NCBI GenBank assembly: GCA_951406725.2
Contig: OX597824.1
Span: 53,940,001-54,004,000 of the forward strand
From: Octopus vulgaris
Lineage: Eukaryota
Reading direction: 5' to 3'
DNA length: 64,000 bases
Shown here one piece after another: positions 54 through 58,864 of the stretch. The position numbers and the translations under genes were made by a program. The notes under the pieces are model-generated. The model saw only the letters and a list, made by a program, of their open reading frames with translations. It made no database searches and was not told the origin of the DNA. The stretch's first letter is position 1. Every line of letters starts with the position of its first letter.

Positions 54-239
54 ATGTCCACTGCTAACACCAGCTCCTGCCCACGGCGTGGTCAGGTTGG
101 AAGAGAGATCAAAAGAAAAATACCACGAAAACTATCACCACCACTACAACCCTCCTCTTCTCAGGCGCCGAATCCCCCTGTCCCCCCCACATCTCCTTCC
201 CAGTTTTCAGAGTTGGCACTATCAATGTTGGTACATTGA
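54..239 (+). CDS. Short ATG-initiated upstream ORF (61 aa) overlapping the RTE ORF
   Basis: ATG at 54, stop TGA 237-239. The main ORF is in the -1 frame and has no ATG before its first endonuclease motif. A short overlapping first ORF is known for RTE elements. Confidence 0.4.
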   Translation: MSTANTSSCPRRGQVGREIKRKIPRKLSPPLQPSSSQAPNPPVPPTSPSQFSELALSMLVH

Positions 240-3200
240 CAGGCAAGTCTAGTGAGATTGTAGAGATGCTAGAGAGAAGACAGGTTGATGTATGCTGCAT
301 ACAAGAGGTAAGATGGAGAGATGCTTCGGCTAGGGTCCTCACGGGCAAGGCACTTAGATACAAACTCTACTGGCAAGGTAACGCGGAAGGTGTAGGGGGT
401 GTAGGCATTCTCCTTGCGGAGGAATGGGTGGATAAGGTCATAGAGGTTGTCAGGGTTTGTGATAGAGTGCTTAAGCTCAGGTTGGTCCTACAGAGTGGCA
501 CAGCTATGATTATCTCAGCCTATGCCCCACAAGCGGGACTACCAAATGATCAGAAGGACAACTTTTATGATACCCTTCTGCAGGCTACTTCAAAGACTAG
601 TAACAAGGACCTCATCTTTGTAGGTGGAGATTTTAATGGGCATGTTGGGCGGGAATCGGGTATCTTCACTGGGGTACATGGTGGCTATGGTATTGGCACC
701 AGAAATGATGAGGGAACTAGACTACTGGAATTCTGTGATGCATGTAACCTTTCAATCTGCAACACTAACTTCAAGAAGCCAGTCTGCCACCTTATAACTT
801 ATCAGTCAGGAGACTCCGCTAGCCAAATAGACTTCATCCTCACCAGACAACGGGATGCAGGGTTGCTCTTGAATACAAAGACCCTCCCGGGTGAAGAATG
901 TATCCCTCAGCATAGACTAATCATCAGTGACTTTAAGCTTGAGGCCAGAAGGACTCCAAGAAACAAACCAATCCAGAAAAGAAGGATTTGGAGGCTAAAG
1001 AACCCTTCGCATGGTCAGAAATTTAGGGACATACTCATCAAGAAATTTGATGAGAGGGAAGAGGAGCTTCAGACGTCAGACATAGAAGGTAGCTGGGAAT
1101 TCCTACGGGACAGCTTGTTGAGTGCCACAGACCAAGTTTGTGGATGGTGCAAAGTCCCTTCCAGACCTAGAATTACGTGGTGGTGGAATAGTGCAGTAGA
1201 TAAAGCCATCTGTGAAAAGAGACGGGCCTGGAAAGCCTGGAAGGATGGGGGCAGCAGGGAACTGTACCAGATAGCCAAAAGGGAGGCTGGGCGGCAGGTA
1301 TACATTGCCAAAGATGTAGCAGAAAAGAAGAAGTTTGCCAATGTCCAGCGTCGCGAGGATCAAAGAGCTGAAGTATTTCGGATTGCCAGACAGTGTGTCA
1401 GAGAAAATAGCGATGTTATAGGAGAGAAATGTGTCCGCATGGATGATGGGGCACTTGCTTTTACTACTAGTGAAAAGAAAGAGGCTTGGAGAAGCCATTA
1501 TGAAAGACTGCTGAATGAGGAGAATGAATGGGAGGAGGAGAGCCTGCCAAATGTTGACCCAGTAGAGGGACCAGCTACCCGAATAGACAGCTCCCTTGTA
1601 GATAAGGCAATTAAGGATATGAAACCAGGCAAAGCCCCTGGCCTATCAGGAATCACTGCTGAGATGCTTAAAACAGCTGGCTATGTGGGCCATGCCATAG
1701 TCACCCGCATTGTAAACCAGGTAGTTCACAATGGAGCCATACCCAATGACTGGTGCAGCAGTACCATAGTCAACTGCTACAAGGGTAAGGGTGATGCTCT
1801 AGATAGAAATAACTACAGAGGTATCAAACTGTTGGACCAGGTGATGAAGGTCTCAGAGAAGGTCATAACCAATCTCATTAGGGAGAGAATTTGTTTAGAT
1901 GAAATGCAGTTCGGTTTTGTACCAGGTAGAAGCACCACTGATGCTATATTCCTGGTCCGACAACTGCAGGAGAAGTACCTAGCTAAAGATAAACCCCTCT
2001 ACATAGCTTTTGTAGACTTGGAGAAAGCCTTTGACAGGGTTCCCCGTTCCCTTATCTGGTGGTCGATGCGGAAACTGGAGATTGAAGAATGGCTAATAAG
2101 GGCTGTACAGGCTCTATACAGAGAGGCTGTTAGCAAGGTTAGGATTGGCAACGAATATAGTGAAGAATTCCGAGTAGAAGTAGGTGTGCACCAGGGCTCA
2201 GCCCTCAGTCCCCTTTTATTCATCATAGTCCTTCAGGCAATAACAGAGGAATTCAAAACGGGATGCCCCTGGGAGCTCCTCTATGCCGATGACCTAGCTC
2301 TCATAGCAGAATCACTACCGGAACTAGAAGAGAAATTTCGGGTGTGGAAGCAAGGGTTGGAATCAAAGGGCCTTAGAATAAATGTAGCAAAGACCAAAGT
2401 ATTAGTAAGCAGCAAGAGGTACTCAACACACATCCCCTCGGGTAGGTGGCCCTGCTCAACCTGTAGGAAAGGTACAGGTAGAAACTCCATAAGATGCACC
2501 CAATGTAAGTTATGGACACATAAGAGGTGCAGCAACATTAAAGGGAAATTAACAGATAAGATAGCTTTCATGTGCGGCAGATGCACAGGGACAATAGACA
2601 CAACAGACACTCAGAAAACAGATTCCATCACACTCCAGGGAGAGAAACTAGAAGTAGTTGATAGTTTCCGCTACCTGGGAGACCAAGTTAGTAGCGGAGG
2701 TGGATGCACAGAGAGTATCACCACTAGAATACGAATAGCCTGGGCAAAGTTCAGAAAGCTCCTACCCCTACTGGCAACAAAAGGCCTCTCCCTCAGAGCA
2801 AAAGGTAGATTGTATGATGCATGTGTGCGAACTGCCATGCTTCACGGTAATGAAACATGGGCTGTGACTGCAGAAGACATGCGTAGACTTGAAAGAAATG
2901 AAGCTAGCATGATCCGCTGGATGTGTAATGTCAGTGTGCACGCAAAACAGAGTGTAAGTATCCTGAGAGAAATGCTGGATATAAGAAGCATCAGATGTGG
3001 TGTGCAAGAGCGACGCTTGCGATGGTATGGTCATGTGCTGCGGATGGATGAAGAGAGATGTGTGAAGAAGTGCCACTCCCAAACAGTTGAAGGTATCAGG
3101 GGGAGAGGTAGACCCAGGAAGACATGGGATGAGGTGGTCAAGCATGACCTCAGAGCATTGGGCCTCACTGAGGCAATGGCGAAGGACCGAGATCTCTGGA

Positions 3201-3355
3201 GATATGCTGTGACTACAAAGACCCGGGCTGCTTTCTGCAGCAATTCCACATACCCCCTACCCATTCTAAGTACCCCGGATCCCCAAAGTACCCTGGATCC
3301 CCAAAGTACCCCGATCCCCAAAGTACCCCGGACCTCGTTGCCCCCGTGCCGCTGA
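236..3355 (+). CDS. RTE ORF: APE endonuclease + reverse transcriptase with embedded PHD finger
   Basis: EN motifs (VGTINV just upstream of 236, CIQE, YAPQ, GDFNGH, SQIDFI, QHRL) and RT motifs (NYRGIKL, QFGF, DLEKAFD, GVHQG, YADD, FRYLG); ends GRGRPRKTW as in RTE. Frame is open from 68, so the true start is uncertain. Confidence 0.92.
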   Translation: MTGKSSEIVEMLERRQVDVCCIQEVRWRDASARVLTGKALRYKLYWQGNAEGVGGVGILLAEEWVDKVIEVVRVCDRVLKLRLVLQSGTAMIISAYAPQAGLPNDQKDNFYDTLLQATSKTSNKDLIFVGGDFNGHVGRESGIFTGVHGGYGIGTRNDEGTRLLEFCDACNLSICNTNFKKPVCHLITYQSGDSASQIDFILTRQRDAGLLLNTKTLPGEECIPQHRLIISDFKLEARRTPRNKPIQKRRIWRLKNPSHGQKFRDILIKKFDEREEELQTSDIEGSWEFLRDSLLSATDQVCGWCKVPSRPRITWWWNSAVDKAICEKRRAWKAWKDGGSRELYQIAKREAGRQVYIAKDVAEKKKFANVQRREDQRAEVFRIARQCVRENSDVIGEKCVRMDDGALAFTTSEKKEAWRSHYERLLNEENEWEEESLPNVDPVEGPATRIDSSLVDKAIKDMKPGKAPGLSGITAEMLKTAGYVGHAIVTRIVNQVVHNGAIPNDWCSSTIVNCYKGKGDALDRNNYRGIKLLDQVMKVSEKVITNLIRERICLDEMQFGFVPGRSTTDAIFLVRQLQEKYLAKDKPLYIAFVDLEKAFDRVPRSLIWWSMRKLEIEEWLIRAVQALYREAVSKVRIGNEYSEEFRVEVGVHQGSALSPLLFIIVLQAITEEFKTGCPWELLYADDLALIAESLPELEEKFRVWKQGLESKGLRINVAKTKVLVSSKRYSTHIPSGRWPCSTCRKGTGRNSIRCTQCKLWTHKRCSNIKGKLTDKIAFMCGRCTGTIDTTDTQKTDSITLQGEKLEVVDSFRYLGDQVSSGGGCTESITTRIRIAWAKFRKLLPLLATKGLSLRAKGRLYDACVRTAMLHGNETWAVTAEDMRRLERNEASMIRWMCNVSVHAKQSVSILREMLDIRSIRCGVQERRLRWYGHVLRMDEERCVKKCHSQTVEGIRGRGRPRKTWDEVVKHDLRALGLTEAMAKDRDLWRYAVTTKTRAAFCSNSTYPLPILSTPDPQSTLDPQSTPIPKVPRTSLPPCR

Positions 3356-6757: not shown

Positions 6758-9700
6758 GCCATCTTTCAGCCATTGGCAGTCTTTTTTCCTCCTCTTACCA
6801 TTACGATTCTACAATTTAAATTCCCAATTCAACTAACTTACTTCTTAAATTTCAACTCCCGATCGATGTCCGCAGCAAGTTCTTTAAAAATTTATCTTAA
6901 TATTTCCATTCGTTGTTACTACGTTTATTCATACATTGTTACGAAAATTTAACCTTTTAAGGCTACTTTCAAGCCTTCGCCATAACTTGATTTATCTTTC
7001 TATCTCTCTCTCTACAAAATTTAACCTTAGGCGAGGCTACCTCAAGCCGTAATCCCATCTCTTCCCATCTCTTCCCATCTTTCAGCCATCTTTCAGCCAT
7101 TGGCGGTCTTTTTTCCTCCTCTTACCATTACGATTCTACAATTTAAATTCCCAATTCAACTAACTTACTTCTTAAATTTCAACTCCCGATCGATGTCCGC
7201 AGCAAGTTCTTTAAAAATTTATCTTAATATTTCCATTCATTGTTACTACGTTTATTCATACATTGTTACGAAAATTTAACCTTTTAAGGCTACTTTCAAG
7301 CCTTCGCCATAACTTGATTTATCTTTCTATCTCTCTCTCTACAAAATTTAACCTTAGGCGAGGCTACCTCAAGCCGTAATCCCATCTCTTCCCATCTTTC
7401 AGCCATCTTTCAGCCATCTTTCAGCCATTGGCGGTCTTTTTTCCTCCTCTTACCATTACGATTCTACAATTTAAATTCCCAATTCAACTAACTTACTTCT
7501 TAAATTTCAACTCCCGATCGATGTCCGCAGCAAGTTCTTTAAAAATTTATCTTAATATTTCCATTCGTTGTTACTACGTTTATTCATACATTGTTATGAA
7601 AATTTAACCTTTTAAGGCTACTTTCAAGCCTTCGCCATAACTTGATTTATCTTTCTATCTCTCTCTCTACAAAATTTAACCTTAGGCGAGGCTACCTCAA
7701 GCCGTAATCCCATCTCTTCCCATCTCTTCCCATCTTTCAGCCATCTTTCAGCCATCTTTCAGCCATTGGCGGTCTTTTTTCCTCCTCTTACCATTACGAT
7801 TCTACAATTTAAATTCCCAATTCAACTAACTTACTTCTTAAATTTCAACTCCCGATCGATGTCCGCAGCAAGTTCTTTAAAAATTTATCTTAATATTTCC
7901 ATTCGTTGTTACTACGTTTATTCATACATTGTTACGAAAATTTAACCTTTTAAGGCTACTTTCAAGCCTTCGCCATAACTTGATTTATCTTTCTATCTCT
8001 CTCTCTACAAAATTTAACCTTAGGCGAGGCTACCTCAAGCCGTAATCCCATCTCTTCCCATCTCTTCCCATCTTTCAGCCATCTTTCAGCCATTGGCGGT
8101 CTTTTTTCCTCCTCTTACCATTACGATTCTACAATTTAAATTTCCAATTCAACTAACTTACTTCTTAAATTTCAACTCCCGATCGATGTCCGCAGCAAGT
8201 TCTTTAAAAATTTATCTTAATATTTCCATTCGTTGTTACTACGTTTATTCATACATTGTTACGAAAATTTAACCTTTTAAGGCTACTTTCAAGCCTTCGC
8301 CATAACTTGATTTATCTTTCTATCTCTCTCTCTACAAAATTTAACCTTAGGCGAGGCTACCTCAAGCCGTAATCCCATCTCTTCCCATCTCTTCCCATCT
8401 TTCAGCCATCTTTCAGCCATCTTTCAGCCATTGGCGGTCTTTTTTCCTCCTCTTACCATTACGATTCTACAATTTAAATTCCCAATTCAACTAACTTACT
8501 TCTTAAATTTCAACTCCCGATCGATGTCCGCAGCAAGTTCTTTAAAAATTTATCTTAATATTTCCATTCGTTGTTACTACGTTTATTCATACATTGTTAC
8601 GAAAATTTAACCTTTTAAGGCTACTTTCAAGCCTTCGCCATAACTTGATTTATCTTTCTATCTCTCTCTCTACAAAATTTAACCTTAGGCGAGGCTACCT
8701 CAAGCCGTAATCCCATCTCTTCCCATCTCTTCCCATCTTTCAGCCATCTTTCAGCCATCTTTCAGCCATTGGCGGTCTTTTTTCCTCCTCTTACCATTAC
8801 GATTCTACAATTTAAATTCCCAATTCAACTAACTTACTTCTTAAATTTCAACTCCCGATCGATGTCCGCAGCAAGTTCTTTAAAAATTTATCTTAATATT
8901 TCCATTCGTTGTTACTACGTTTATTCATACATTGTTACGAAAATTTAACCTTTTAAGGCTACTTTCAAGCCTTCGCCATAACTTGATTTATCTTTCTATC
9001 TCTCTCTCTACAAAATTTAACCTTAGGCGAGGCTACCTCAAGCCGTAATCCCATCTCTTCCCATCTCTTCCCATCTTTCAGCCATCTTTCAGCCATCTTT
9101 CAGCCATTGGCGGTCTTTTTTCCTCCTCTTACCATTACGATTCTACAATTTAAATTCCCAATTCAACTAACTTACTTCTTAAATTTCAACTCCCGATCGA
9201 TGTCCGCAGCAAGTTCTTTAAAAATTTATCTTAATATTTCCATTCGTTGTTACTACGTTTATTCATACATTGTTACGAAAATTTAACCTTTTAAGGCTAC
9301 TTTCAAGCCTTCGCCATAACTTGATTTATCTTTCTATCTCTCTCTCTACAAAATTTAACCTTAGGCGAGGCTACCTCAAGCCGTAATCCCATCTCTTCCC
9401 ATCTTTCAGCCATCTTTCAGCCATCTTTCAGCCATTGGCGGTCTTTTTCCTCCTCTTACCATTACGATTCTACAATTTAAATTCCCAATTCAACTAACTT
9501 ACTTCTTAAATTTCAACTCCCGATCGATGTCCGCAGCAAGTTCTTTAAAAATTTATCTTAATATTTCCATTCGTTGTTACTACATTTATTCATACATTGT
9601 TACGAAAATTTAACCTTTTAAGGCTACTTTCAAGCCTTCGCCATAACTTGATTTATCTTTCTATCTCTCTCTCTACAAAATTTAACCTTAGGCGAGGCTA

Positions 9701-11744
9701 CCTCAAGCCGTAATCCCATCTCTTCCCATCTTTCAGCCATCTTTCAGCCATTGGCGGTCTTTTTTCCTCCTCTTACCATTACGATTCTACAATTTAAATT
9801 CCCAATTCAACTAACTTACTTCTTAAATTTCAACTCCCGATCGATGTCCGCAGCAAGTTCTTTAAAAATTTATCTTAATATTTCCATTCGTTGTTACTAC
9901 GTTTATTCATACATTGTTACGAAAATTTAACCTTTTAAGGCTACTTTCAAGCCTTCGCCATAACTTGATTTATCTTTCTATCTCTCTCTCTACAAAATTT
10001 AACCTTAGGCGAGGCTACCTCAAGCCGTAATCCCATCTCTTCCCATCTTTCAGCCATCTTTCAGCCATCTTTCAGCCATTGGCGGTCTTTTTTCCTCCTC
10101 TTACCATTACGATTCTACAATTTAAATTCCCAATTCAACTAACTTACTTCTTAAATTTCAACTCCCGATCGATGTCCGCAGCAAGTTCTTTAAAAATTTA
10201 TCTTAATATTTCCATTCGTTGTTACTACGTTTATTCATACATTGTTACGAAAATTTAACCTTTTAAGGCTACTTTCAAGCCTTCGCCATAACTTGATTTA
10301 TCTTTCTATCTCTCTCTCTACAAAATTTAACCTTAGGCGAGGCTACCTCAAGCCGTAATCCCATCTCTTCCCATCTCTTCCCATCTTTCAGCCATCTTTC
10401 AGCCATCTTTCAGCCATTGGCGGTCTTTTTTCCTCCTCTTACCATTACGATTCTACAATTTAAATTCCCAATTCAACTAACTTACTTCTTAAATTTCAAC
10501 TCCCGATCGATGTCCGCAGCAAGTTCTTTAAAAATTTATCTTAATATTTCCATTCGTTGTTACTACGTTTATTCATACATTGTTACGAAAATTTAACCTT
10601 TTAAGGCTACTTTCAAGCCTTCGCCATAACTTGATTTATCTTTCTATCTCTCTCTCTACAAAATTTAACCTTAGGCGAGGCTACCTCAAGCCGTAATCCC
10701 ATCTCTTCCCATCTCTTCCCATCTTTCAGCCATCTTTCAGCCATCTTTCAGCCATTGGCGGTCTTTTTTCCTCCTCTTACCATTACGATTCTACAATTTA
10801 AATTCCCAATTCAACTAACTTACTTCTTAAATTTCAACTCCCGATCGATGTCCGCAGCAAGTTCTTTAAAAATTTATCTTAATATTTCCATTCGTTGTTA
10901 CTACGTTTATTCATACATTGTTACGAAAATTTAACCTTTTAAGGCTACTTTCAAGCCTTCGCCATAACTTGATTTATCTTTCTATCTCTCTCTCTACAAA
11001 ATTTAACCTTAGGCGAGGCTACCTCAAGCCGTAATCCCATCTCTTCCCATCTTTCAGCCATCTTTCAGCCATCTTTCAGCCATTGGCGGTCTTTTTTCCT
11101 CCTCTTACCATTACGATTCTACAATTTAAATTCCCAATTCAACTAACTTACTTCTTAAATTTCAACTCCCGATCGATGTCCGCAGCAAGTTCTTTAAAAA
11201 TTTATCTTAATATTTCCATTCGTTGTTACTACGTTTATTCATACATTGTTACGAAAATTTAACCTTTTAAGGCTACTTTCAAGCCTTCGCCATAACTTGA
11301 TTTATCTTTCTATCTCTCTCTCTACAAAATTTAACCTTAGGCGAGGCTACCTCAAGCCGTAATCCCATCTCTTCCCATCTTTCAGCCATCTTTCAGCCAT
11401 CTTTCAGCCATTGGCGGTCTTTTTTCCTCCTCTTACCATTACGATTCTACAATTTAAATTCCCAATTCAACTAACTTACTTCTTAAATTTCAACTCCCGA
11501 TCGATGTCCGCAGCAAGTTCTTTAAAAATTTATCTTAATATTTCCATTCGTTGTTACTACGTTTATTCATACATTGTTACGAAAATTTAACCTTTTAAGG
11601 CTACTTTCAAGCCTTCGCCATAACTTGATTTATCTTTCTATCTCTCTCTCTACAAAATTTAACCTTAGGCGAGGCTACCTCAAGCCGTAATCCCATCTCT
11701 TCCCATCTCTTCCCATCTTTCAGCCATCTTTCAGCCATTGGCGG
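6758..11744 (+). repeat. Tandem array of 15 near-identical ~316-338 bp monomers
   Basis: Marker CATTGGC(G/A)GT recurs at about 6771, 7098, 7426, 7764, 8091, 8429, 8767, 9105, 9433, 9749, 10077, 10415, 10753, 11081, 11409 and 11736. Length varies with copy number of CCCATCTCTT and CAGCCATCTTT subunits. Confidence 0.95.
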
Positions 11745-12713
11745 TGCGCCCCCCCCCCACCCCCACCACCAATACCGATGAACACTGTTCTCACCCCCAC
11801 CACCAATACCGGTGAACACTGTTATCACCGCCAACACCACCAATACTGGTGAACACTGTTCCTCACCCCCCACCACCAATACCAGTATACCCTGTCCTCA
11901 CCATCTACACCGGATACGCCTTACTCATCTACACCGGGTAAGCCCTACTCCCTCCTCCTCCCCCCACTACCCCTTCTCCTCATATGCTTTCACTGGGAAA
12001 AGACAAGCTGCTAGCGCCATAGCTCATCAACTGCCCACCGATCTTACGCTTCCTCCGGACACTGCTCCATTCCGACTATCCCCCTTTAGCACCCTCCCGC
12101 CTCGTAATATCCTACGTTTTTATTTCTTAGGAACCTACACCAACCCTTCCTGCCATCGTTCCTCCTTACCCCAACCTTCCCCACTGGTTGCTCCCCTATA
12201 TTACCCACCTCAACTGGACCCCCCCTCCCCAACTCAACTCTAGAATATCTGTATTCTTTCCTCTACCTAATAACGTTACTCAGTGACGATAACGAATGTC
12301 TTTATTTCTTAGGAACCTACACCAACCCTTCCTTACTCAGTGACGATAAATGCTGTGACTACAAAGACCTGGGCTGCTTTCTGCAGCAATTCCACATACC
12401 CCCTACTCATTCTAAGTACCCCAGATCCCCAAAGTACCCCGGACCTCGTTGCCCCCGTGCCGCTGACACGTTAAAATGCTCGAACCGATCGTGACGATGC
12501 CGGACCCTCCGGCCCCTGTGCAGGTGGCACGTAAAAGCACCCAATCCACTCACGGAGTGGTTGGCGTTAGGAAGGGCATCCAGCCGTAGAAACTCTGCCA
12601 GATTCAGACTGGAGCCTGGTGCGGCCCCTGGCTTCCCAGACCCGGTCAAACCGTCCAACCCGTGCTAGCGCGGAAAGCGGACGTTAAACGATGATGATGA
12701 TGATGATGATGAT
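6758..12713 (+). mobile_element. Non-autonomous RTE derivative with 5 kb 5' monomer array (type A)
   Basis: Array 6758-11744, 5' UTR 11745-12300 (end matches window 1-58), junction to RTE 3' end (12350-12713 = ~3204-3600), (GAT)n tail, (TA)n on both sides. Confidence 0.88.
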
Positions 12714-13365
<652 letters not shown>

Positions 13366-16300
13366 CACCGGCCCCAAAACGGAGGTACGCAGATGTGGTG
13401 CGTACCACAAACCACCAACGTGTTGTTGAAAGGGCAGCTGCTGAGCAGGAATCTTTTTTGTGCATGGCACAAAAGATTGTACAGCAGCTAACCTGGCTCC
13501 ATCAGGCTCAGGCTCGCAGATGGAACTGCCCACGGTTCACAAGACCGCCACAGCAGATGGACCCAGGGTGGACACCACCGGCAACAGCATACACCTCACC
13601 TCGATGCTCCTACTGAACATCAGAGGACTACTAACACACAGTAACAGGACAAAAGTCCCGTTCCTGAGAGACTTTGTCGCATGCAATCAAGCCTTATGCA
13701 TAGCACTCACAGAAACGCATCTGAAACCGGACATAGCAGATGCGGAATTACACATACCACAGTATGTTGTACTACGGACCGACAGGAAAGAAAGAAGTCA
13801 TGGAGGAGTTGCTATGTACATCCGTGGGGACCTCACACCCCAGGTCCTTTTGTCATACTCAAACTCGGTGTGTGACACACTAATTGTACACATAAGGCAA
13901 CTTGATGTAGTTGTGTGTGCTACATATCGCCCTCCAGATGCCCCAAGTCATATGGGCAAGTTTGAGGACTGCCTTTTAAAAATAGAAGAAGTTCTAACCA
14001 CATTAGAACAACACATAAGTGTACTTCTCATGGGAGACTTCAATCTACCGAATGTCAGATGGCCCGAGGGCCTTTCTCTCCCAGGAATGACAAGATGTGA
14101 ACGAGGACAGGCGAGGTCCCTCCTGAACCTCACCAACACCCTGTACATGGAGCAAGTAATACTCCAACCAACCAGAGCGGGTAACACACTGGATCTCTGC
14201 TTCACAAATAATATGGATCTCATCCATAATGTGAAAGTGACACCGACACTACTCTCGGATCACAACATGGTAGAGCTGACCATGTACGGGCCAAAAGAGA
14301 GCACGGACATGCAGCCTACAAGAAACCCTCAAAGTTTTTCCAGCTTGAACTTCAATAAGGCAAACTGGAAACAAATTGAGAAAGAGATCCTCAAACAAAA
14401 CTGGCCTGAATGTCTCTCCTCGCCGGACATCGACATGATACTTCAACAATTCATGTCTGTAATGCAAGCCATATGCTACAAATGTGTCCCAGAGAGAAAG
14501 GCCACTGTACACAAGAACAAAATCCCCAGAGAGAGAAAAATTTTAATGAGACGGCGCACAAAAATCTCAAATCGCCTAAACAAACAAATTGAAAGCAGTG
14601 AAAAGTCCCGCCTGAAAATAAAACTGTTGGAAATTGAAAATTGTCTGCAACTCTCCCATGAGAAGGAAAGAGCAGACAAAGAAGCCTGGGCTATAGACAA
14701 CATAAAAACTAACCCCAGAGCTTTCTACAGGTATGCCAAAGAAACAGCTACGGTGCACTGTAGGATAGGGCCACTCCTTGAAAAGGATGGCACACTCACA
14801 GGAAAACCAATGAGGGTAAGTGAAATACTGAATGAACAATTCAAGAGTGTTTTCACTCCACCCCTTGGGCATTTCCAAATCAGCAATCCAACTGACTTTT
14901 TACCACTGCAGATATAGAATCAGAGGCGGCGACGTTAAATTACATCGATATAAAGGAAGATGATGTAATAAAGGCTATAGATGAAATGAAAATAGACTCA
15001 GCTATTGGCCCCGATGGATTCCCGGCAATCCTCCTAAAAGTATGTAAGAGAGTCTTAGCAAGACCACTGCAGTTCCTCTTTCAGAGCTTCCTTGCAGCTG
15101 GCAAACTTCCAAGAAAACTGAAGGAAGGTAAAATATGCCCTATTCATAAAGGAGGTAGCAGAGCGGAGGCCAAGAACTACAGACCTATCTCTCTGACCTC
15201 ACACATCAGCAAGGTCATGGAACGAATAGTCAGAAGGAAGCTAATCACCTTCCTTGAAGAAAATGACTTGCTGCCTGACACCCAACATGGTTTCCGACCA
15301 GGAAGAAGCTGCTTAACTCAGCTCCTGCAGCACTATGACTGGGTGCTGAAACAACTGCTCAACCACTCAAATGTGGAAGTCATATATCTCGACTTCGCAA
15401 AGGCCTTCGATAAAGTCGATCATGGAATGATATGTCACAAACTGCGTGATCTTGGCATAGTTGGAAAACTAGGAGAATGGCTTCACGACTTTCTGAAGAA
15501 TAGAAGTCAGGTGGTAGTAGCCAATGGGGCCACTTCCATTAGCACGCAAATAGTGAGCGGTGTTCCACAGGGCACTGTTTTGGGACCACTACTGTTCATA
15601 ATGGCCCTCTCAGACATGCCCTCAGCCACGCGGAGAGCCACGATCACAAGTTATGCAGATGATACAAAAGTTTCACAGGCAATACAGAACCCTGAAGACA
15701 CTAGGCACCTGCAATATGAGCTGGACGAAATTTACAAGTGGGCTGAAAAGAATAGCATGCAGTTCAATGCTGAAAAGTTTCAAGCTTTATACTATCAGCA
15801 TGCAAAACTGAATGCAATACCCAAGAAATACACTGGACCCGGAGGGATTGCAATCCCAGAGGCACAATCAGTGCGTGACCTGGGTATTCACATGAGTGAT
15901 GACGCGACCTTTCATGTACATGTTGCTAAACTGACAGTGAAATGCAGACGCCTGGCTGGATGGATTCTTAGAACCTTTAGAACAAGAGAACAAGAAACCA
16001 TGATGGTCCTCTGGAAGACACTTGTCCTAAGTCACTTTGACTATTGCTCTCAGCTATGGTCACCATCCAGTGTCAAGTTGATCACAGAACTTGAGGCGAT
16101 CCAACGAAGCTACACGAAGAAGATAGCCTCTATGCAGAATGTAAGCTACTGGGAAAGACTCAAGAGATAAAAATTATATTCCCTGGAGCGTAGGCGGGAA
16201 AGATATGCCATAATATACATCTGGAAGATCCTGGAGGGAAGTATCCTGAACTTTGGCATCGAGAGTTACGCAAACGCCAGAACTGGGCGCCACTGCGTGG

Positions 16301-16652
16301 TGCCTAGGACTCCAAACTTGCCATCAAGATGTAGGACAAGATTCTGTGATAGCCTGGGCTTCCGAGGCCCACAGCTCTTCAATATCCTCCCGATGAACCT
16401 GAGAGACCTGCATGGGGTGGATACAGATGTCTTTAAAATGGAGCTGGATCTCTTCCTGTCAGGTGTCCCAGATGAACCAACTTCACGGCAGGAGGGGCAG
16501 ATGAGGGCAGCTGCATCGAACTCTCTCATGCACCAAATAGCAGTTGCTAAAAAGCCTCCATGAAGTGAAACCAAGTAGCAACACCAAATGGCGGTGCCCC
16601 AGCATGGCCACAGCTCATGAGCTGAAACTGGAATCAATCAATCAATCAATCA
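13366..16652 (+). mobile_element. CR1-group LINE family 1, 5'-truncated in ORF1
   Basis: ORF1 C-terminus (to 13616), EN+RT ORF2, 3' stem-loop, (AATC)n tail. Confidence 0.9.
13460..16563 (+). pseudogene. LINE family 1 ORF2 (EN+RT) with one frameshift (~14900) and one nonsense codon (16168-16170)
   Basis: LNIRGL, LTETHL, YRPP, GDFN, SDH; YRPISLTS, QHGF, DFAKAFD, GVPQG, YADD, YSLERRR. The TAA at 16168 is TTA in the sister copy at ~24560. Confidence 0.88.
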
Positions 16653-17742: not shown

Positions 17743-19585
17743 GAAGTGATCTCAAGATAAGAAATCTTTGAACTTTAATTCATCCGTATCTCTATTTATT
17801 ATTATTATTTATTAATTATTATTATTCTGATCCCCCTAGTCGCCACTCTGTTTACTATTTCAGCCTCGCCTCGCCTCGTTTTGCATATTCTGTATAATTC
17901 ACTAGTTATCGTTATTGATATTTTAAGATCTATCTCCCTTATAGAAATTGGCTGCCGATTCTTCGCGGGGTTTTCTTTTCTCTTCCCTTCTCTCCCCCTC
18001 TTGTTACATTGTCGTCTGTCTGGACTCCTCTCTTCCTACCACCCGCCATGGCTATGCATACTTAAGCTAGTAAACTGCCTCATTCTTGATTCCGAATTCC
18101 TTTTGCCAAGTCTGTCCGTAAACGAAGTGATCTCAAGATAAGAAATCTTTGAACTTTAATTCATCCGTATCTCTATTTATTATTATTATTTATTAATTAT
18201 TATTATTCTGATCCCCCTAGTCGCCACTCTGTTTACTATTTCAGCCTCGCCTCGCCTCGTTTTGCATATTCTGTATAATTCACTAGTTATCGTTATTGAT
18301 ATTTTAAGATCTATCTCCCTTATAGAAATTGGCTGCCGATTCTTCGCGGCGCGCCCGCCCTACCCACCCCCACCACCAATACCGGATATCTCTATTTTGC
18401 TCCAACTATACCGGATGTCGTTTTTCTCCCACCACCATTATAGGTGTCTACTCTTTGAACCCCCTCTTCAATACGCTATTTCACCATGCATTACCCCTCT
18501 CTCGATATCCTACGTTCTACTTGCCTAGAACCTGTCCTCTGGACCACCCCTCCCACTGGTGCTCACCCCTCCCACTGGTGCTCACCCCTCCCACTGGTGC
18601 TCCCCTATATTTCTGCATCCCCCCACCACCATTATAGGTGTCTACTCTTTGAACCCCCTCTTCAATACGCTATTTCACCATGCATTACCCCTCTCTCGAT
18701 ATCCTACGTTCTACTTGCCTAGAACCTGTCCTCTGAACCACCCCTCCCACTGGTGCTCCCCTATATTTCTGCACCCCCCACCACCATTATAGGTGTCTAC
18801 TCTTTGAACCCCCTCTTCAATACGCTATTCACCATGCATTACCCCTCTCTCGATATCCTACGTTCTACTTGCCTAGAACCTGTCCTCTGAACCACCCCTC
18901 CCACTGGTGCCCACCCCTCCCACTGGTGCTCCCCTATATTTCTGCATCCCCCCCCACCATAATAGGTGTCTACTCTTTGAACCCCCCTCTTCAATACGCT
19001 ATTTCACCATGCATTACCCCTCTCTCGATATCCTACGTTCTACTTGCCTAGAACCTGTCCCCTGAACCACCCCTCCCACTGGTGCTCTCCTATATTTCTG
19101 CACCCCCCACCACCATTATAGGTGTCTACTCTTTGAACCCCCCTCTTCAATACGCTGCTCCCCTATATTTCTGCACCCCCCACCACCATTATAGGTGTCT
19201 ACTCTTTGAACCCCCCTCTTCAATACGCTATTTCACCATGCATTACCCCTCTCTCGATATCCTACGTTCTACTTGACTAGTACCTGTCCTCTGAACCACC
19301 CCTCCCACTGGTGCTCCCCTATATTTCTGCACCCCCCCCATAAAAAGCACCATCCGAACGTGGCCGATGCCAGACCCCTCTGGCACCTGTGCAGGTGGCA
19401 CGTAAAAAACACCCACTACACTCGCGGAGTGGTTGGCGTTAGGAAGGGCATCCAGCTGTAGAAACACTGCCAGACTAGACTGGAGCCTGGGGCAGTCCCG
19501 AGCTCCCCAGACCCCGGTCGAAACCGTCCAACCCGTGCTAGCGCGGAAAACGGACGTTAAACGATGATGATGATGATGATGATGA
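17743..19585 (+). mobile_element. Non-autonomous RTE derivative with 381-bp 5' monomers (type B, ~1.6 copies) and internal tandem repeats
   Basis: 17743-18123 repeated from 18124 to ~18349; junction motif at ~18347-18387; repeated ATAGGTGTCTACTCTTTGAACCCC units 18430-19340; RTE-type 3' end and (GAT)n tail. Confidence 0.85.
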
Positions 19586-19818: not shown

Positions 19819-22800
19819 TAACTTAGAATAACTTAGAATAACTTAGAAAGGTTTTTGGCCAGTATTGGCCCAGGCCATGTCTAACTTAATAGCACCACCT
19901 GGCGAAGTCTTTCAGTTCAGGATTTGGGCACCAAGGCCCATTCGAGCAGAGAGTTATTGTTTGCGGAGACATATCCGGGTGTGGATGGTTTGTCCGGTAC
20001 TGTTTGAAGGAATTTGTCCAAAGACTTCTTGAATTTTGTGTGGTCAGTTTCTTTTTTGACGTGTCCTGGTGTAATGTTGAAGAGAGCGGGTCCAATTGAG
20101 GTGAAATAGTTGTGCCGTATTGTCGTTATGTGATGCGATTTAGATTTTTGTTGTGGACGGATGGCACGTGGTCCAAGCCTTGGATGCATTTTGAAGGTGA
20201 TGCCAACATCATTCGGACAGTGCTGATGGAATATTTTCCACATCATACAGATAATGTAGCGTTCACGGCGTCGTTGGAGTGAATACAATTTCAGCTTCTC
20301 TAGTCTACCCCAGTAGTCAAGGTCTGACATGCCATCTATCTTTTTTGTGATTGACCTTTGGGGAGCTTCAATTCTCATAATATTTTGTTTTGTGTAGGGA
20401 GACCACAGTGGACAGCAGTATTCAAGGTGGGGTCGGGCAAAAGTGGAGAAGAGAAGGATAATAGCGTGGGAATCTCTCGACTGGAAGGTTCTGAGAATCC
20501 AGGAACACATTCTGCGGGCCATGTCAACTTTGCTGCTTATATGTGTAGCCCAGCTTATGTTGTTGTCCACTGTTACTCCCAGGTCTCTGATGTTGTTGGA
20601 TGCCATGAGAATTTCTCCAGAAGGAAGAGAGTATGGGAGTTTCAGAGCGTCCTCCCTTCCAAAGTGGATCAGTTCGAATTTGTCTTCATTTAGCAACATG
20701 TTATTCTTTTCCGCCCATTGGACAACAGCCAGTAGGTCTGACTGAAGGTTTATTCGGTCATCCACGCCATTGATGACCTTCTGGAGCTTGGAATCATCAG
20801 CGAAGGTTCTGATGTTGCTGTGTTTGATGGTGTCAGTAATATCATTTATGTAGATGATGAAGAGAAGTGGGCCCAACACAGTGCCTTGTGGGACACCACT
20901 GCTGACTTTGGCTGGGCTGGATTTGACTCCTTCGACTACAACATGTTGGGTTCTGTTAGAGAGGAAGCACTTGATCCATTGCAGCAGCTTTCCAGTGACA
21001 CCAATATTGGACAGCTTTCTCAGAAGGATCTTATGATCAACCCTGTCAAAGGCCTTGCTGAAATCAAGGTAGATGACATCAGTGTTGGAACCCTCTCCCA
21101 AGGCTCTCAAAATGTCATCAAAATGATGCAGTAGCTGCGTCAGGCAATCTCTCCCATTACGGAATCCATGCTGGTTGGGGTTCAGCATATTATGACTCTC
21201 AAGGAAGTGAGTCATACGCGATCTCAGCACCCTCTCAAATACCTTGATGATATGAGAGGTGAGTGAGATTGGACGGTAATTCACGGCAAGCGATTTGTTT
21301 CCTTTTTGAAAACTGGGACAACAGACTGGGATAGAAGGTCTTCTGGTATATATCCAGCATCCAATGAGTTCCGCCACAGATTGGCTAGAGGGGGTGCAAG
21401 TTGGTTTTGACACATCTTCAAGACACAAGCAGGGAACCTATCGGGACCTACTGCTGAATTATGCTTCATTTCCTTTATTGCTGCTAAGACATCAGGAGCG
21501 CCAAATGTTATGTCCGATAAAGTGTATTGGGGAGTAACATCACTGATACAGCCCAGATCAGTCATATCAGGATTGCTGAAAACAGAGCAATATTGTTTCT
21601 GCAATATTTCTCCCATGGTTTTGGCATTGTCTTGAAGAATATCATTTTCATCAATCAGAGGGCCAACAGTAGAACCAGTGACTCTGTGTTTTTTTGCAAA
21701 TGAAAAGAACACTTTGGGATTGAGTTTGATCCTCTCAATGGCCCAGGCCTCTTCAGCTCTTCGCTGACTATTGATGATAGACATCATGTTGTTTTGGAGT
21801 TTATGTTTTTTAATCTCTAGCGACGAGATGGCAGTCAGGTTGGTGTGTTGCTGTTGACAGTATTTCAGCATGTTGATCTTTTTGTTGATTCTTTTAATTT
21901 TCCTTATGAGAGATTTTCTATTTCTAGGGATTCGACACTTAGATTTGTTTGCAGATCTTAATGGGGTGTGTCTTGCACATATGTTCGTGATGGTGTCTAC
22001 AAGTGACTGCCAGGACTTTTTGATGTTAGTGGGTGTGTATGTGTGCGTGAAGGACCAATCGACTTGTGCAAGATCATTATTGATCGCTTCCCAGTTTGCA
22101 TTGTGGAAATCCATAGTGTCAAATGGATGAACAGGAGGGATGACATTTGTTTTGCATTTTGGCCAGTGAAATCTCAGATCACAGAGAACCATGTCATGGT
22201 CGGAGAGTAGGGTTTTCTCCACTGCAATATTGTGGATAGTATCAGTGTGATTGCTGAAAATTAAGTCTAAGACGTTTTTGTGACATCTCGTTGGTTCGAG
22301 TACCAGTTGGGACAAGAAGAAGTCATCCATGAAGTCAAGAAGCGATTCCACTGCCTCCCTGTCAGGGGTTGAGAGAGAAGAACCTGGCGGCAGACTGTTT
22401 GTAGACCAGTCAACCCCGGGAAGGTTGAAATCTCCCATCATTAAAATGTTGTCAGGTTGACACTGCTGAATGAAACACTTTATGCTGTTGAGGCATTCCT
22501 TGAAGCATGGTAGGGGCGTTTGGGGTGGTCTGTAGAGCCCAACTACTGTTAAGTTGTTGGTTTGACTGAATACAGCGACTGCTTCGCAGTATCCATTCGA
22601 AAATATGTTCATGGCTTCTGTTGAGAATGAATCATGGACATAAATGGCAGTCCCACCCTTTCTTCTGCCAACACGATCAGCACGAATGGTTTTGAAATTT
22701 TTAACTTTCACCTCGGCTTCCAAGTGGAGGTCACTAAGATGGGTTTCAGTGAGGACGAAGAAAGGGATGTGGTTTGGATGGGCCTCGACCCAGTCCTCCA

Positions 22801-23283
22801 GGAATCTTATCTTCCATTTTTGTGTATTGGTGGAAGGGCTGATGCCTTGGGCATTAAGCAGAAATGTTGAGGCGAGAGTGGATGGTTTTAATTGTTTTGG
22901 TGATTTGTTTATTTGATTGCTTTTTAATGGCATGTGTAGTGGGGTAATAGTGGTGGATGGCGGTGGGTGATAGCTCGGATGTTTTTTTCCAGTTCTTTTG
23001 CTAGATTCATTATAGCTAAAAAAGAGGAAGAAGAGGTGGTTTCCTGTCTAGGGAACCGCAGGTGACTGTGGCCGCGGCTATTTTTATGTGAGTGGTTATC
23101 TTTAAATGTCCGACGAGTCCCCGGGAGATGGGTAAAGGGGCAATCCCTGTGCAAACACAATCTGTCTCGCTGGGAATAGCGGCAGATTTGGGGATTCCTT
23201 GTTTGAGATATTGGTGGTTGTGGTGATGTTGTATTATGGTGGTTGCTGTTGTAGTTTGTGGGGATAGAGCGTTTTGTTCCAGG
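19819..23283 (-). mobile_element. CR1-group LINE family 2, 5'-truncated in ORF1
   Basis: ORF1 C-terminus with CCCH-type motif (CRYSQRDRLCLHRDCPFTH) ending at 22924, EN+RT ORF2, (TAAGTTATTC)n tail. Confidence 0.9.
19917..22933 (-). CDS. LINE family 2 ORF2 (EN+RT), single 1-bp frameshift at ~21300
   Basis: Two ORF-track pieces join at VVPVFK|KGNKSLAVNYRPISLTS; FADD and YSLQRRRERY motifs; no internal stops otherwise. Confidence 0.85.
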
Positions 23284-23564: not shown

Positions 23565-23802
23565 TGATTGATTGATTGATTGATTGATTGATTCTAGTTT
23601 CAGCTTATGAGCTGTGGCCATGCTGGGGCACCGCCATTTGGTGTTGCTACTTGGTTTCACTTCATGGAGGCTTTCTAGCAACTGCTATTTGGTGCATGAG
23701 AGAGTTCGATGCAGCTGCCCTCATCTGCCCCTCCAGCCGTGAAGTTGGTTCATCTGGGACACCTGACAGGAAGAGATCCAGCTTCATTTTAAAGACATCT
23801 GT
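23565..23802 (-). mobile_element. 5'-truncated family 1 LINE (3' ~240 bp)
   Basis: Reverse complement of ~16422-16652. Confidence 0.9.
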
Positions 23803-23809
23803 ATATATA

Positions 23810-23865
<56 letters not shown>

Positions 23866-24069
23866 TATGTATATCTATATATATATATATGTATATCTAT
23901 ATATATATATATGTATATCTATATATATATATATGTATATCTATATATATATATGTATATCTATATATATATATGTATATCTATATATATATATATATGT
24001 ATATCTATATATATATATATATGTATATCTATATATATATATATGTATATCTATATATATATATATATA

Positions 24070-25282
24070 TGATTGATTGATGATTGATTGATTGATTCCA
24101 GTTCCAGCCTATGAGCTGTGGCCATGCTGGGGCACCGCCATTTGGTGTTGCTACTTGGTTTCACTTCATGGAGGCTTTCTAGCAACTGCTATTTGGTGCA
24201 TGAGAGAGTTCGATGCAGCTGCCCTCATCTGCCCCTCCTGCCGTGAAGTTGGTTCATCTGGGACACCTGACAGGAAGAGATCCAGCTTCATTTTAAAGAC
24301 ATCTGTATCCACCCCATGCAGGTCTCTCAGGTTCTTCGGGAGGATATTGAAGAGCTGTGGGCCTCTGAAGCCCAGGCTATCACAGAATCTTGTCCTACAT
24401 CTTGATGGCAGGTTTGGAGTCCTAGGCACCACGCAGTGGCGCCCAGTTCTGGCATTTGTGTAACTCTCGATGCCAAAGTTCAGGACACTTCCCTCCAGGA
24501 TCTTCCAGATGTATATTATGGCATATCTTTCCCGCCTACGCTCCAGGGAGTATAATTTTAATCTCTTGAGTCTTTCCCAGTAGCTTACATTCTGCATAGA
24601 GGCTATCTTCTTTGTGTAGCTTCGTTGGATCGCCTCAAGTTCTGTGATCAACTTGACACTGGATGGTGACCATAGCTGAGAGCAATAGTCAAAGTGGCTT
24701 AGGACAAGTGTCTTCCAGAGGACCATCATGGTTTCTTGTTCTCTTGTTCTAAAGGTTCTAAGAATCCAGCCAGCCAGCCGTCTACATTTCACTGTCAGTT
24801 TAGCAACATGTACATGAAAGGTCGCGTCATCACTCATGTGAATACCCAGGTCACGCACTGATTGTGCCTCTGGGATTGCAATCCCTCCGGGTCCAGTGTA
24901 TTCATTGGGTATTGCATTCAGTTTTGCATGCTGATAGTATAAAGCTTGAAACTTTCCAGCATTGAACTGCATGCTATTCTTTTCAGCCCACTTGTATATT
25001 TCGTCCAGCTCACATTGCAGGTTTTTAGTGTCCTCAGGGTTCTGTATTGCCTGTGAAACTTTTGTATCATCTGCATAACTTGTGATCGTGGATCTCTGCG
25101 TGGCTGAGGGCATGTCTGAGAGGGCCATTATGAACAGTAGTGGTCCCAAAACAGTGCCCTGTGGAACACCACTCATTATTTGCGTGTTAATGGAAGTGGC
25201 CCCATTGGCTACTACCACCTGACTTCTATTCTTCAGAAAGTCGTGAAGCCATTCTCCTAGTTTTCCAACTATGCCAAGATCA
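24070..25282 (-). mobile_element. 5'-truncated family 1 LINE (1.2 kb, open RT C-terminal half 24166-25218)
   Basis: Near-identical to ~15448-16652; (AATC)n tail. Confidence 0.92.
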
Positions 25283-30422
<5,140 letters not shown>

Positions 30423-31399
30423 ATACTCTTTTACTCTTTTACTTGTTTCAGCCATCCGGCTGAGGCCATGCTGGGCCCCGCCCTTGTTGCTACCCTCTCT
30501 AAGTCCAGTTTGCCGTGGCTGGCCACTGATCTAAGAGAGAGTTTGTAGCTGCTGCCCTTAGGTTACCTTCGTACCTTGCAGTGGGTTCATCTGGGATCCC
30601 GGAAAGCAGCTTGTCTAGATGTTTTTTGAAAATGTCCACATCCGCATCATGTAGATCTCTTAGTTTTCTTGGCAGTTTGTTGAACAGCTGAGGGCCCCTG
30701 AACCCCAGGCTATTACAGTATCTGCTCCTTACCCTGGATGTGGAAGACGGGACCTTTGGCACCACACAGTGACGTCCTGTACGGGGATTGGAACAGCTCT
30801 CAATTCCAAAATTTGGTGCTAGTCCCTCCAGGATTTTCCATATGTATATCACTGCATATCTCTCTCGTCTTCGTTCCAAGGAGTACAAATTGAGTTCCCT
30901 AAGCCTCTCCCAATAGTTCTTTTCTTTCATGGTGGAAATCCTCTTGGTGAAATGTCTTTGGATTGTCTCAAGCTCTGTGGTTAGTTTGACACTATGCGGT
31001 GACCACAGTTGGGAGCAGTAGTCCAGGCGGCTTAGGACAAATGTCCTCCATAGTGTCAACATGGTCTCGCAGTCTCTTGTCCGGAATGTCCTCGGGATCC
31101 AGCCAGTGAGTCGTCTGCACATTGTTGCCACCTTCGCGATGTGTGAAGAAAAAGATGCATCGTCACTCATGTCTATCCCCAGGTCCCGTATTGATTTCGA
31201 TACTGGGATTTCGATCCCTCCTGGACCAGTATAGTTGTGTTGTAATGTATATGTGTTTACAGCTTGATATTGTAAGGCTTGAAATTTATCAGCATTAAAT
31301 TGCATGTTGTTGTCTTCAGCCCATTTGTATATGGCATCCAGATCTTGTTGTAAAAGGTCAGCATCAGCTGGGTTTTTGATTGCCTGTGCTACCTTTGTG
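30423..31399 (-). mobile_element. 5'-truncated CR1-group LINE family 3
   Basis: ORF 30499-31305 homologous to the family 1 C-terminus ([27 protein letters not shown]); (GTAAAAGA)n tail. Confidence 0.9.
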
Positions 31400-31514
31400 T
31401 ATATATATCTATATATCTATATATCTATATATCTATATATATATATCTATATATCTATATATCTATATATATATATATATCTATATCTATATATATATCT
31501 ATATATCTATATAT

Positions 31515-54469: not shown

Positions 54470-56680
54470 TGTACTCGATGGTTTGACTATTCCTTGAGGT
54501 ACAGGTATGTCAAAAATGTCGAAGAAATTCCATTAGTTCTTCATGTTTTATTCTTTCCTCTGCAAACCATTTTTTTTCAGTTGGTTTAAATGTCTTTCGT
54601 GTTCCCATGTATGACATTTTACCATGTAAGTTCATTTTCTTAAACATTCACTTATTATACCTTCTTCCCAACTTTCCTGCCTATTTCTGTATATTCTAAA
54701 AAACACCTTGTCACTGATTTTGAACTATTTTGTCTTATTTTTGGTGTTTCTCATCACTTATTTTTTTCTTCCCAGTAGTAAGTGGTCAAACACTGACCTG
54801 ACATTCCTGGTGACATACCTTAAGTGGTGTTGGGATTAAGTGTTATTCAATAGACAGTTAAGAATTGCATCAATGAGGTATCAGATAGTAGCTTATTCCT
54901 ATATTTTTTCAGTCTCCTCTTAAACGTGTCTACATAACGTTCTGCTAGTCCATTCGATCTTCGATGGTATGGCAGAGTAGTAATATGCTCCATTGCATAC
55001 ATTTCGCAAAAGTTTTTCAATTCCTTTGATGTCAATTGCGTTCTGTTATCAGATACTATAGTGTTTGGGTTGCCATATCACGCAAAAAGTTCATCCAGAA
55101 ATTCCATTATTACTTTGGAAGTTGGCTTCCTACATTTACATATTTCTGGCCATTTCGTGTAACTATCTACAAACATTTAACAGTCCTGCAAAGTCTATGT
55201 GTAATCTGTCAGTCTTGAGCCAAAGCTGAATATTTATAGGTGGTACTTTTGCTTCCAGCACATAACCCCTGCAGGCTTTCACCAATTTTTCAATATCCTG
55301 GTTCCTATTTGGCCAGTAGACGTAGCTCCTCATCAGTGCTTCCATTCTCGCAATTCCTGGATGTCTCATGTGGAATTCTTTTAGCATACAATTTTGCAAA
55401 GAAACAGGTATTACAACCCTCTGAGCATACATAAGCACGTCATCACATAACGAACACCATTTTGAAACTGTGTTACACTTGGCTACATGAGTTTTCATAT
55501 TTGTTTCTGACTTCACTATTTTTTTCCTTTTTATTATGAACACATCCTTCTCTGCTTTAATTTTTATTTCCTCTAAAGTGACAGGTAGTTTGTGTACTAT
55601 GTTGCAGAGTATATTTTTTGTTTCAATTTCAGCTTTTAATGCTGCTTTTACTATGTCTTCTAATGGTTCATTGTATTTAGGTATCAATCTTGACAGCCCA
55701 TCCATGTCACAGATTTTTCGATGGTAGAAATTCCATCTTAAAGTCATAATTTAGCAAGATAGTCCCGCAGCAGTGCAATTGGTTGGCTGTATGTGTGGGG
55801 ATACCCTTTTTTGATCCATAATTTGACAACAATGAGTGGTGATCTGTCTGCAGATTGAATTTCCTTCCATGTATGAATTTGTGAAATTTTTTCATGGCAA
55901 AAATAATGGCTAATGCCACCTCCTCAATTTGGCTGTAGTTTTTTTCAGCCACCAACAATGAACGTGAAGCATGGGTGATCGGTTTTAGGCTACCATTTTC
56001 ATACTAGTGTAAAATTGCTGCTAGCATCTGATGTTACAACTATTTTTAAATTTGGATCAAAGTACGATGATGACAGTTCTGATGTTAAAACTTAAAATTT
56101 CTTCGAACACTTTTTGGCACCTGTCCAATCAATACCATTTAATGTCTTTTTTCAATAGGTTGTTTAGGGGTACTCTTAGTTCATGCATATTTGGTATATA
56201 TGTTTGGTAATAGTTTGTGAGCTCCAAGAATCCTTGTAATATAATATTTTTTGGGGGAAGCATATTTTTTATTGCAGTCGATCTTAAAGAATCTGGCCTG
56301 AGACCATTTTTATTGATAACTTGCCCAAGATACTTTATTTCTGGCATGAAAAATTTGCATTTTTCCTTGCTAAGTTTAAATCCATATTCCTTTATTCTTT
56401 CAAAGACCTTTTTAACATGTTCCTCATGCTGGCCTTGAGACTCACTTTTTGTGAGTATGTCATCCAAGTATTGTGAAATCTGTAACCGCAAGCATAGTGT
56501 CCATCACCTGTTGGAAAATATTAAGTGCCACCTTTATCTCAAAAGGAAGTCGACTGAATTTATATAAACCTTTATGGGTGTTTATTGTTAATAATTTCGA
56601 ACATTCCTCCTCGATTTGTAACTGTAAATATGCCTTTTTCTTTACATAAACAGTTGGTGATGATACTAATACTGACATTT
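54470..56680 (-). pseudogene. Decayed Ty3/Gypsy pol (RT, RNase H, integrase)
   Basis: Fragments INTHKGLYKFSRLPF, YLDD, EKNYSQIE, LQTDH, H-HPGI..YVYWP..C, LHIDFAG, SNGLAER; many stops and frameshifts. Confidence 0.85.
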
Positions 56681-58410: not shown

Positions 58411-58645
58411 TACTCTTTACTCTTTTACTTGTTTCAGTCATTTGACTGCGGCCAGGCTGGAGCAGCGCCTTTAGTCGAGCAAATATACCCCAGGACATAT
58501 TCTTTGTAAGCCCAGTACTTATTCTATCGGTCTATTTTGCCGAAGCGCTAAGTGACAGGGACGTAAACACACCAGCATCGGTTGTCAAGCAATGCTAGGG
58601 GGACAAACACAGACAGACAAACACACACACACATACATATATATG

Positions 58646-58699
<54 letters not shown>

Positions 58700-58864
58700 T
58701 ACGACAGGCTTCTTTCAGTTTCCGTCTAGCAAATCCACTCACAAGGCATTGGTCGGCCCGGGGCTATAGCATAAGACACTTGCCCAGGATGCCACGCAGT
58801 AGGACTGAACCCGGAACCATGTAGTTGGTTACAAAGCTACTTACAACACAGCCACTCCTGCGCC
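58411..58864 (-). mobile_element. tRNA-derived SINE (same family as 36672-37061)
   Basis: Same head, body and tail, with internal (TA)/(CA) microsatellite. Confidence 0.88.

Follow-up and report, generated by a model that had tools for sequence, protein, structure and literature searches.

How is ORF2 synthesized in a LINE whose two open reading frames overlap in different frames? For LINEs, this has been answered experimentally mainly for L1 and SART1, both of which use reinitiation. The question is raised here by a CR1-like LINE copy (family 2) on the minus strand of a 64,000-nucleotide stretch of Octopus vulgaris DNA (GenBank assembly GCA_951406725.2, contig OX597824.1, positions 53,940,001 to 54,004,000). 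This whole stretch is referred to as the window, and octopus coordinates are positions within it. The initial annotation pointed to a heptamer, U_UUU_UUA, between ORF1 and ORF2 and proposed that these LINEs may make a retrovirus-like fusion of the two products by programmed -1 frameshifting. The features that bear on this proposal are the following:

22924..23283, minus strand: 3' remnant of family 2 ORF1, about 120 codons, homologous to full ORF1 proteins
23128..23184, minus strand: last CCCH-type zinc finger of ORF1, C-x8-C-x4-C-x3-H, with C/H columns invariant in alignment A3
23048..23050, minus strand: TAG that shuts the -1 frame upstream, 9 codons 5' of the slippery site
23017..23023, minus strand: slippery heptamer U_UUU_UUA at the conserved x-Phe-Leu, a predicted site of -1 frameshifting
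22981..22987, minus strand: second in-phase heptamer, A_AAA_AAC, family 2 only
22924..22933, minus strand: ORF2-frame ATG (22933-22931) and ORF1 stop TAA (22926-22924), a possible stop-start reinitiation site
21281..23047, minus strand: first part of ORF2, comprising the dual-coded linker and the APE endonuclease, to the frame break
19917..21437, minus strand: second part of ORF2, comprising the reverse transcriptase (RT) and the C-terminal region
about 19820..19850, minus strand: 3' tail of short tandem repeats (TTATTCTAAG units), read from the sequence
13454..13460, plus strand: homologous heptamer U_UUU_UUG of a second element (family 1), in the context GAA TCT TTT TTG

The family 2 copy is truncated at its 5' end, at about 23283, against a (TA)n tract, and its ORF2 carries a frame break near 21300; these two lesions indicate that the copy is dead. 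The endonuclease was recognized by Pfam (PF14529/PF03372), also matches the L1 endonuclease, and is followed downstream by the RT. Its L-L-N motif begins at 22861. Two traits of the CR1/L2 group, an APE endonuclease followed by an RT and a 3' tail of short repeats, are thus present; tails made of short tandem repeats are a feature of CR1/L2-group LINEs. The copy sits in an AT-rich, microsatellite-laden eukaryotic region.

Logan contigs from three of four sequencing runs (X2, X12, and X15) showed zero differences to positions 22500-23283, while those of the fourth (X10) showed one, outside the junction; no joints were found in the four runs. These contigs may share source DNA with the window and are silent on expression. 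Among the 24 runs listed, 20 contain 88-97% of the window's sequence words. Agreement of the contigs across the junction indicates that this arrangement is family 2's own and not the decay of a single copy. Also, contigs of all four runs revealed, at 22642-22872, a second subfamily with deeper coverage, whose endonuclease is about 81% identical.

The minus strand reads TTTTTTA from 23023 to 23017, in the ORF1 frame TCT TTT TTA (S-F-L), and this string occurs only once on the sense strand of the element. The -1 frame is open for 588 codons from 23047, via the ATG at 22933 into the APE endonuclease. Both the phase of the heptamer and the frame running without a stop from the upstream TAG into ORF2, as given in the initial annotation, were therefore confirmed. 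The second heptamer noted there, A_AAA_AAC at 22987-22981, is in phase as well but is not conserved; it was dropped as a lineage feature, since none of the 11 other elements has it in the overlap.

Taken alone, the family 2 copy is only mildly unusual. The chance of slippery codons at this position, given its codon usage, is 0.018-0.035, and that of the open -1 frame is 0.11-0.42, the upper value being obtained from synonymous shuffles. The joint chance of T-TTT-TTA together with the open frame is about 0.002-0.015, and we argue from their retention that the site is still under selection in family 2. The strength of the case for frameshifting comes from the relatives of this copy rather than from the copy itself.

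The ORF1 remnant, and then the growing alignment, were used as queries and yielded 1, 6, and finally 16 proteins. In the resulting alignment A3 (20 rows), Phe-Leu follows the CCCH-type fingers in all 19 rows that reach it. Two proteins stand outside A3, namely P0001, with S-F-L, and the ORF1 homologue P0010, with P-L-L in place of x-F-L. All 19 proteins have H, S, L, P, N, or T immediately before Phe, residues whose codons can end in U. None of the 19 has K, E, Q, M, or W there; codons for these five never end in U, and their share among the 20 residues upstream of Phe-Leu is 23%. The near-invariant Phe-Leu lies at the start of a confidently predicted C-terminal helix: a structural model of the P0021 ORF1 protein (mean pLDDT 69) has Phe366-Leu367 near the start of helix 360-391, which comes after a disordered linker. 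Pfam matches to CCCH fingers in the ORF1 relatives were weak (zf-CCCH, sub-threshold); the corresponding Atlas clusters carry zf-CCCH in 10-24% of their members. No Pfam PHD match was obtained among the 20 ORF1 proteins, in which a PHD-like Cys/His/Trp pattern was recognized by eye only, and fold and sequence searches of ORF1 against the PDB returned nothing significant.

Metagenomes were scanned with a pattern of the ORF1 zinc fingers, which takes no account of the Phe-Leu codons; of 28 matching stretches, 10 were confirmed as related LINE loci. The Phe-Leu anchors were picked by eye from the translations. The homologous Phe-Leu is coded by exactly T-TTT-TTA in 10/10 loci, the T run being six nucleotides long (seven in L003 and L004). 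With families 1 and 2 of the window added, slippery codons are found at this site in 12 of 12 elements, versus 0 of the 42 other Phe-Leu pairs in the same elements coded as T-TTT-TTN. Across 2911 upstream ORF1 codons, only 6 canonical heptamers of any type are in phase. All nine loci that reach the endonuclease have a -1 frame without stops between the site and this domain, which makes 11 of 11 elements when both window families are included; L002 ends at a contig edge with this frame still open for 27 codons. A search for relatives with non-slippery Phe-Leu codons or with stops in the overlap thus gave none of either kind. Across the elements, the upstream -1 stop lies 1-22 codons before the site and the overlap spans 32-101 codons, while the +1 frame contains 1-10 stops in each overlap.

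The chance of slippery codons, calculated per element from its own codon usage, was 0.010-0.107. The product over eight lineages was 3.8e-12, and that for open -1 frames in synonymous shuffles was 6e-14; both exclude the discovery copy as well as L002-L004, which are close to L001. Endonucleases of the slippery-site lineages share 27-61% identity, a divergence that should have allowed synonymous sites to vary freely. The explanation that Phe-Leu is kept for the sake of the protein, with codons and overlap due to chance, is compatible with the near-invariant position of this pair at the start of the helix. It is largely refuted by the contrast of 12/12 with 0/42, by the joint codon-usage chance of about 1e-12, and by six of 11 elements that would then have no ordinary ORF2 start. 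Scans beyond these loci were negative: five scans of viral contigs revealed no LINEs of the slippery-site lineage (one gave two distant RTs), and an ORF1 scan of prokaryote genomes gave no match.

The second LINE of this kind in the window, family 1, occupies 13362-16650 on the plus strand, and its ORF2 is 33-41% identical to that of family 2. Its -1 frame opens at 13445, 4 codons before the heptamer, and runs into the endonuclease. The ORF1 stop is at 13614-13616, with ATGs at 13520 and 13604, and the 3' tail consists of ATCA repeat units. Further pieces of family 1 are located at 23580-25311 and 30499-31416. The window also contains a nearly intact single-ORF RTE-like LINE of 1095 codons (68-3355, plus strand) whose RT is followed by a PHD-like insert (Pfam PF00628, E 6e-4, not reaching the cut-off), a tandem array of about 330-bp units (6758-11745), a smaller degenerate tandem array (18428-19337), and a 2.9-kb tandem duplication (56041-61789). 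The LINE copies of the window are embedded in (TA)n/ATCT microsatellites.

A pattern for the RT retrieved 76 loci in prokaryote assemblies and two in viral contigs, and 15 of these 78 were read; most of the remaining ones are copies of one tandem array. Namely, L023-L084, L086, and L087 belong to a metagenome-assembled genome (MAG) labelled as uncultured Arenicella, which contains dozens of head-to-tail L1/Tx1-like LINE copies with a period of about 6.5 kb on contigs of up to 94 kb, probably host DNA. Two RT-selected loci, L014 and L021, possess a CCCH-type ORF1 and a junction; they appear to be eukaryotic LINE contigs that contaminate bacterial MAGs. In L021, the -1 ORF has its first codon at G_GAU_UUU (2840-2846), D-F-H replaces x-F-L, and the stem rank (see below) is p 0.033. 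In L014, the -1 frame opens 7 codons ahead of A_AAA_AAC (1360-1366), and the stem rank is p 0.83. The ORF1s of L021 and L014 are A-rich and contain 5 and 2 other upstream heptamers, respectively, so each of these loci lends modest support. L022, with a CCCH-type ORF1 and no endonuclease after it, and L013, which lacks the junction, are outside the junction counts. Other-clade LINEs of the RT set display stop-start joins: TAATG in L016 (at about 2389) and ATGA in L088 (at about 2058), both overlaps with the geometry of SART1-like coupling, and an ATG after the stop in L044. In another of them, L015, ORF1 and ORF2 share one frame and are separated by a single TGA followed by C (460-462), which may point to readthrough.

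An RT tree with 21 rows groups the 12 slippery-site elements that have an RT, together with L013, on a single, moderately supported branch (80/87, not starred). This tree was built without named reference elements, and the label CR1-like is provisional for the lineage. A PHD finger is common in ORF1 proteins of the CR1/L2 group, as stated in the part of PMC4120745 available to us; the terms 'CCCH', 'frameshift', and 'overlap' do not occur in that part of this ORF1 classification.

The initial annotation had cautioned that no strong stimulatory structure was seen downstream of the heptamer. This holds true for family 2, in which no downstream fold was detected (z 0.01 and 0.66), but not for the relatives, 9/10 of which have a predicted stem in a post hoc test. 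Folding in fixed windows gave downstream z values below -2 for L005 and L008 only. The stem test was designed after the folds had been seen; for each heptamer, it took the best helix with a start 5-11 nt downstream and compared it by rank with helices at phase-matched positions no more than 600 nt away. In this post hoc ranking, p was 0.003-0.079 in nine of the ten loci, with stems 6-11 nt downstream, and the Fisher combination over nine lineages was 6e-6. Ranks without support were obtained for L006 (0.38), family 2 (0.84), and family 1 (0.96). The predicted stems include 14 bp after 6 nt in L005, 12 bp after 7 nt in L010, 8 bp after 7 nt in L009, and an 8-bp hairpin after 8 nt in L008. They differ in sequence between families and mostly have long loops. 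The canonical spacer between heptamer and structure is 5-9 nt (PMC7618472, in the portion available). Long-range partners at up to 600 nt, sought for families 1 and 2, gave no convincing stem at spacers of 5-11 nt. Given that no stem is predicted in family 2, slippage there would have to rely on the heptamer by itself or be promoted by something non-structural. Semliki Forest virus shifts without a functional 3' structure, so the missing stem is compatible with frameshifting in this family.

Our comparison with the relatives thus supports the proposed ORF1-ORF2 fusion. Judged from sequence, programmed -1 frameshifting very probably produces it in the lineage as a whole and probably does so in family 2. 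A minority of ribosomes would slip back by one base on U_UUU_UUA and make a fusion protein of ORF1, endonuclease, and RT. Most ribosomes would not shift and would complete ORF1, with its zinc fingers and C-terminal helix. Those that shift would keep the N-terminal zinc fingers, lose the helix, and pass through a linker of 50-100 residues into the endonuclease. The slip rate would then fix the ratio of ORF1 to ORF2, as it does for gag and gag-pol. In most relatives, the stem 6-11 nt downstream may stimulate slippage; in family 2, the heptamer would act by itself or with a stimulator other than structure.

The main competing explanation is termination-reinitiation at the ORF1 stop, at AUG 22933 in family 2 and at AUG or near-cognate codons in the relatives, with the heptamer idle. 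Several observations agree with it. The AUG of family 2 lies 7 nt before the ORF1 stop, although this stop comes 22 codons earlier than in the relatives. An AUG is present 4-10 nt before the stop in 4/11 elements (family 2, family 1 at 10 nt, L009, and L010), and an AUG or near-cognate codon occurs within 15 nt before it in all 11; in L007, the AUG is 148 nt before the stop. Non-AUG starts are tolerated in reinitiation by caliciviruses, according to the available part of PMC5972666. Also, family 2 lacks a stem. In ten of 11 elements (L001, L003-L010, and family 1), the ORF1 stop coincides with the Leu-Asn of the first endonuclease strand, family 2 being the exception, and this geometry suits stop-coupled reinitiation.

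Part of that coincidence is presumably forced by the codons, since Leu-Asn in the -1 frame often creates a stop in the 0 frame, and the Leu/Ile/Val codons of the first beta-strand are near-cognate by nature. None of the 11 elements has UGGGA, the TURBS core, in the 110 nt that precede the ORF1 stop, and no fold was found around the stop-start site of family 2 (22975-22900; z 0.59). In the close relatives P0002, P0003, and P0004, the called ORF2 begins elsewhere. The initial annotation had also cautioned that an in-frame ATG exists. This applies to family 2, with its AUG by the ORF1 stop, but six of 11 elements (L001, L003, L004, L005, L006, and L008) have no AUG before the first conserved Asn of the endonuclease. 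In these six, the first AUG is located 14 nt past the ORF1 stop (104 nt in L006), after the Asn. The latter aligns to residue 14 of the L1 endonuclease and is required for endonuclease activity. Reinitiation with an idle heptamer leaves unexplained the fixed T-TTT-TT codons, the -1 frame kept open for 32-101 codons, and the stems, and we regard it as unlikely. In family 2, where an AUG by the ORF1 stop is combined with the lack of a downstream structure, reinitiation may act alongside frameshifting or instead of it, and at AUG 22933 it may add free ORF2 protein.

Slippage of RNA polymerase on the T run, by which an added U would place ORF2 in frame in some transcripts, fits the conserved feature, which is six consecutive T (seven in L003 and L004). 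Six T are short for polymerase slippage. The T run keeps one codon phase throughout, stems lie at the spacing expected for ribosomes, and L014 and L021 have other heptamers in phase, all of which this model does not account for. No insertion was present at the site in contigs of the four runs, although contigs drop rare variants. Polymerase slippage is therefore very improbable.

Slightly less credible still is that the site serves as a 3' splice acceptor (pyrimidine tract and UAG, 23040-23016) and that a spliced RNA gives ORF2. Family 2 does have a textbook pyrimidine tract ending in TAG, and G follows TTA in 9/12 elements. The relatives have no long pyrimidine tract, and the AG is missing in the other three elements, namely L005 and L010 (TTA-C) and family 1 (TTG-T). 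Neither a joint nor a loose end occurred at 23016 among those listed for the four runs, whose status as RNA was guessed. Splicing is disfavoured on account of the absent AG and the absence of a joint.

Programmed -1 frameshifting at this heptamer resembles several known systems. The alphavirus 6K/TF frameshift uses U_UUU_UUA; it differs in that it concerns a viral structural protein and leads to a short alternative end instead of access to a replicase. Its 3' stimulators are diverse, and the one of Semliki Forest virus involves no functional structure (PMC5009743, available part). HIV-1 gag-pol shares the heptamer (PMC5009743 and PMC7618472, in the parts available), the fusion of a nucleic-acid-binding upstream ORF to an RT-bearing one, and, for the relatives of family 2, the stem near downstream. 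In contrast, the elements described here are non-LTR retrotransposons with an APE endonuclease, no protease that would cut the fusion was seen, the overlap is 32-101 codons long, and the stems are long-looped and variable, with none predicted in family 2.

Among non-LTR elements, SART1 and L1 make ORF2 by reinitiation or coupling (PMC2881922 and PMC5972666, as far as available). Like the LINEs studied here, they are bicistronic, with ORF2 depending on ORF1 translation, and the AUG near the stop in family 2 recalls the UAAUG coupling of SART1. They differ in producing free ORF2, and the available parts of these sources describe neither a slippery site nor a long dual-coded overlap. ORF2 of the Dictyostelium elements TRE5-A and TRE3-A is said to need a -1 frameshift (legend in PMC5911963, available in part). 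These are also APE-type non-LTR elements but belong to another lineage; no slippery site, stimulator, or experiment was found for them in the accessible portions of PMC5911963 and PMC5006619. Frameshifting has been proposed for the Drosophila HeT-A element too, but the shift is inside gag and the element has no RT. For non-LTR groups 1-2 of Paramecium, frameshifting was proposed as well, but it is of the +1 type and was deduced from consensus sequences only; the available part of PMC5405496 names +1 shifting or reinitiation. In the accessible portion of PMC5009743, HeT-A, TART, and L1 are the only non-LTR elements named. Our literature search, whose scope did not extend to most subscription papers and Repbase Reports, brought up no paper on a conserved slippery site in CR1-like LINEs and no tested case.

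The predicted, canonical -1 frameshift signal of this LINE lineage is a real sequence feature, well supported by sequence comparison, and it amounts to a 100-nt cassette that is directly testable. On the whole, it seems likely that an old and diverse CR1-like lineage with CCCH fingers uses a gag-pol-like fusion at the HIV-1 heptamer as a third route to ORF2. Its stems would be long-looped and family-specific, its heptamers swappable, and its RT tied to the ORF1 fingers, and some families, such as family 2, would be switching to reinitiation or adding it. If this is true, the fusion RT carries the zinc fingers of ORF1, which would bear on cis preference and on particle stoichiometry, and ORF2 of these LINEs is mis-annotated at an AUG inside the endonuclease. 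Chromosomes would then hold many natural frameshift signals with new stimulators, and these LINEs could respond to host factors with an effect on viral frameshifting.
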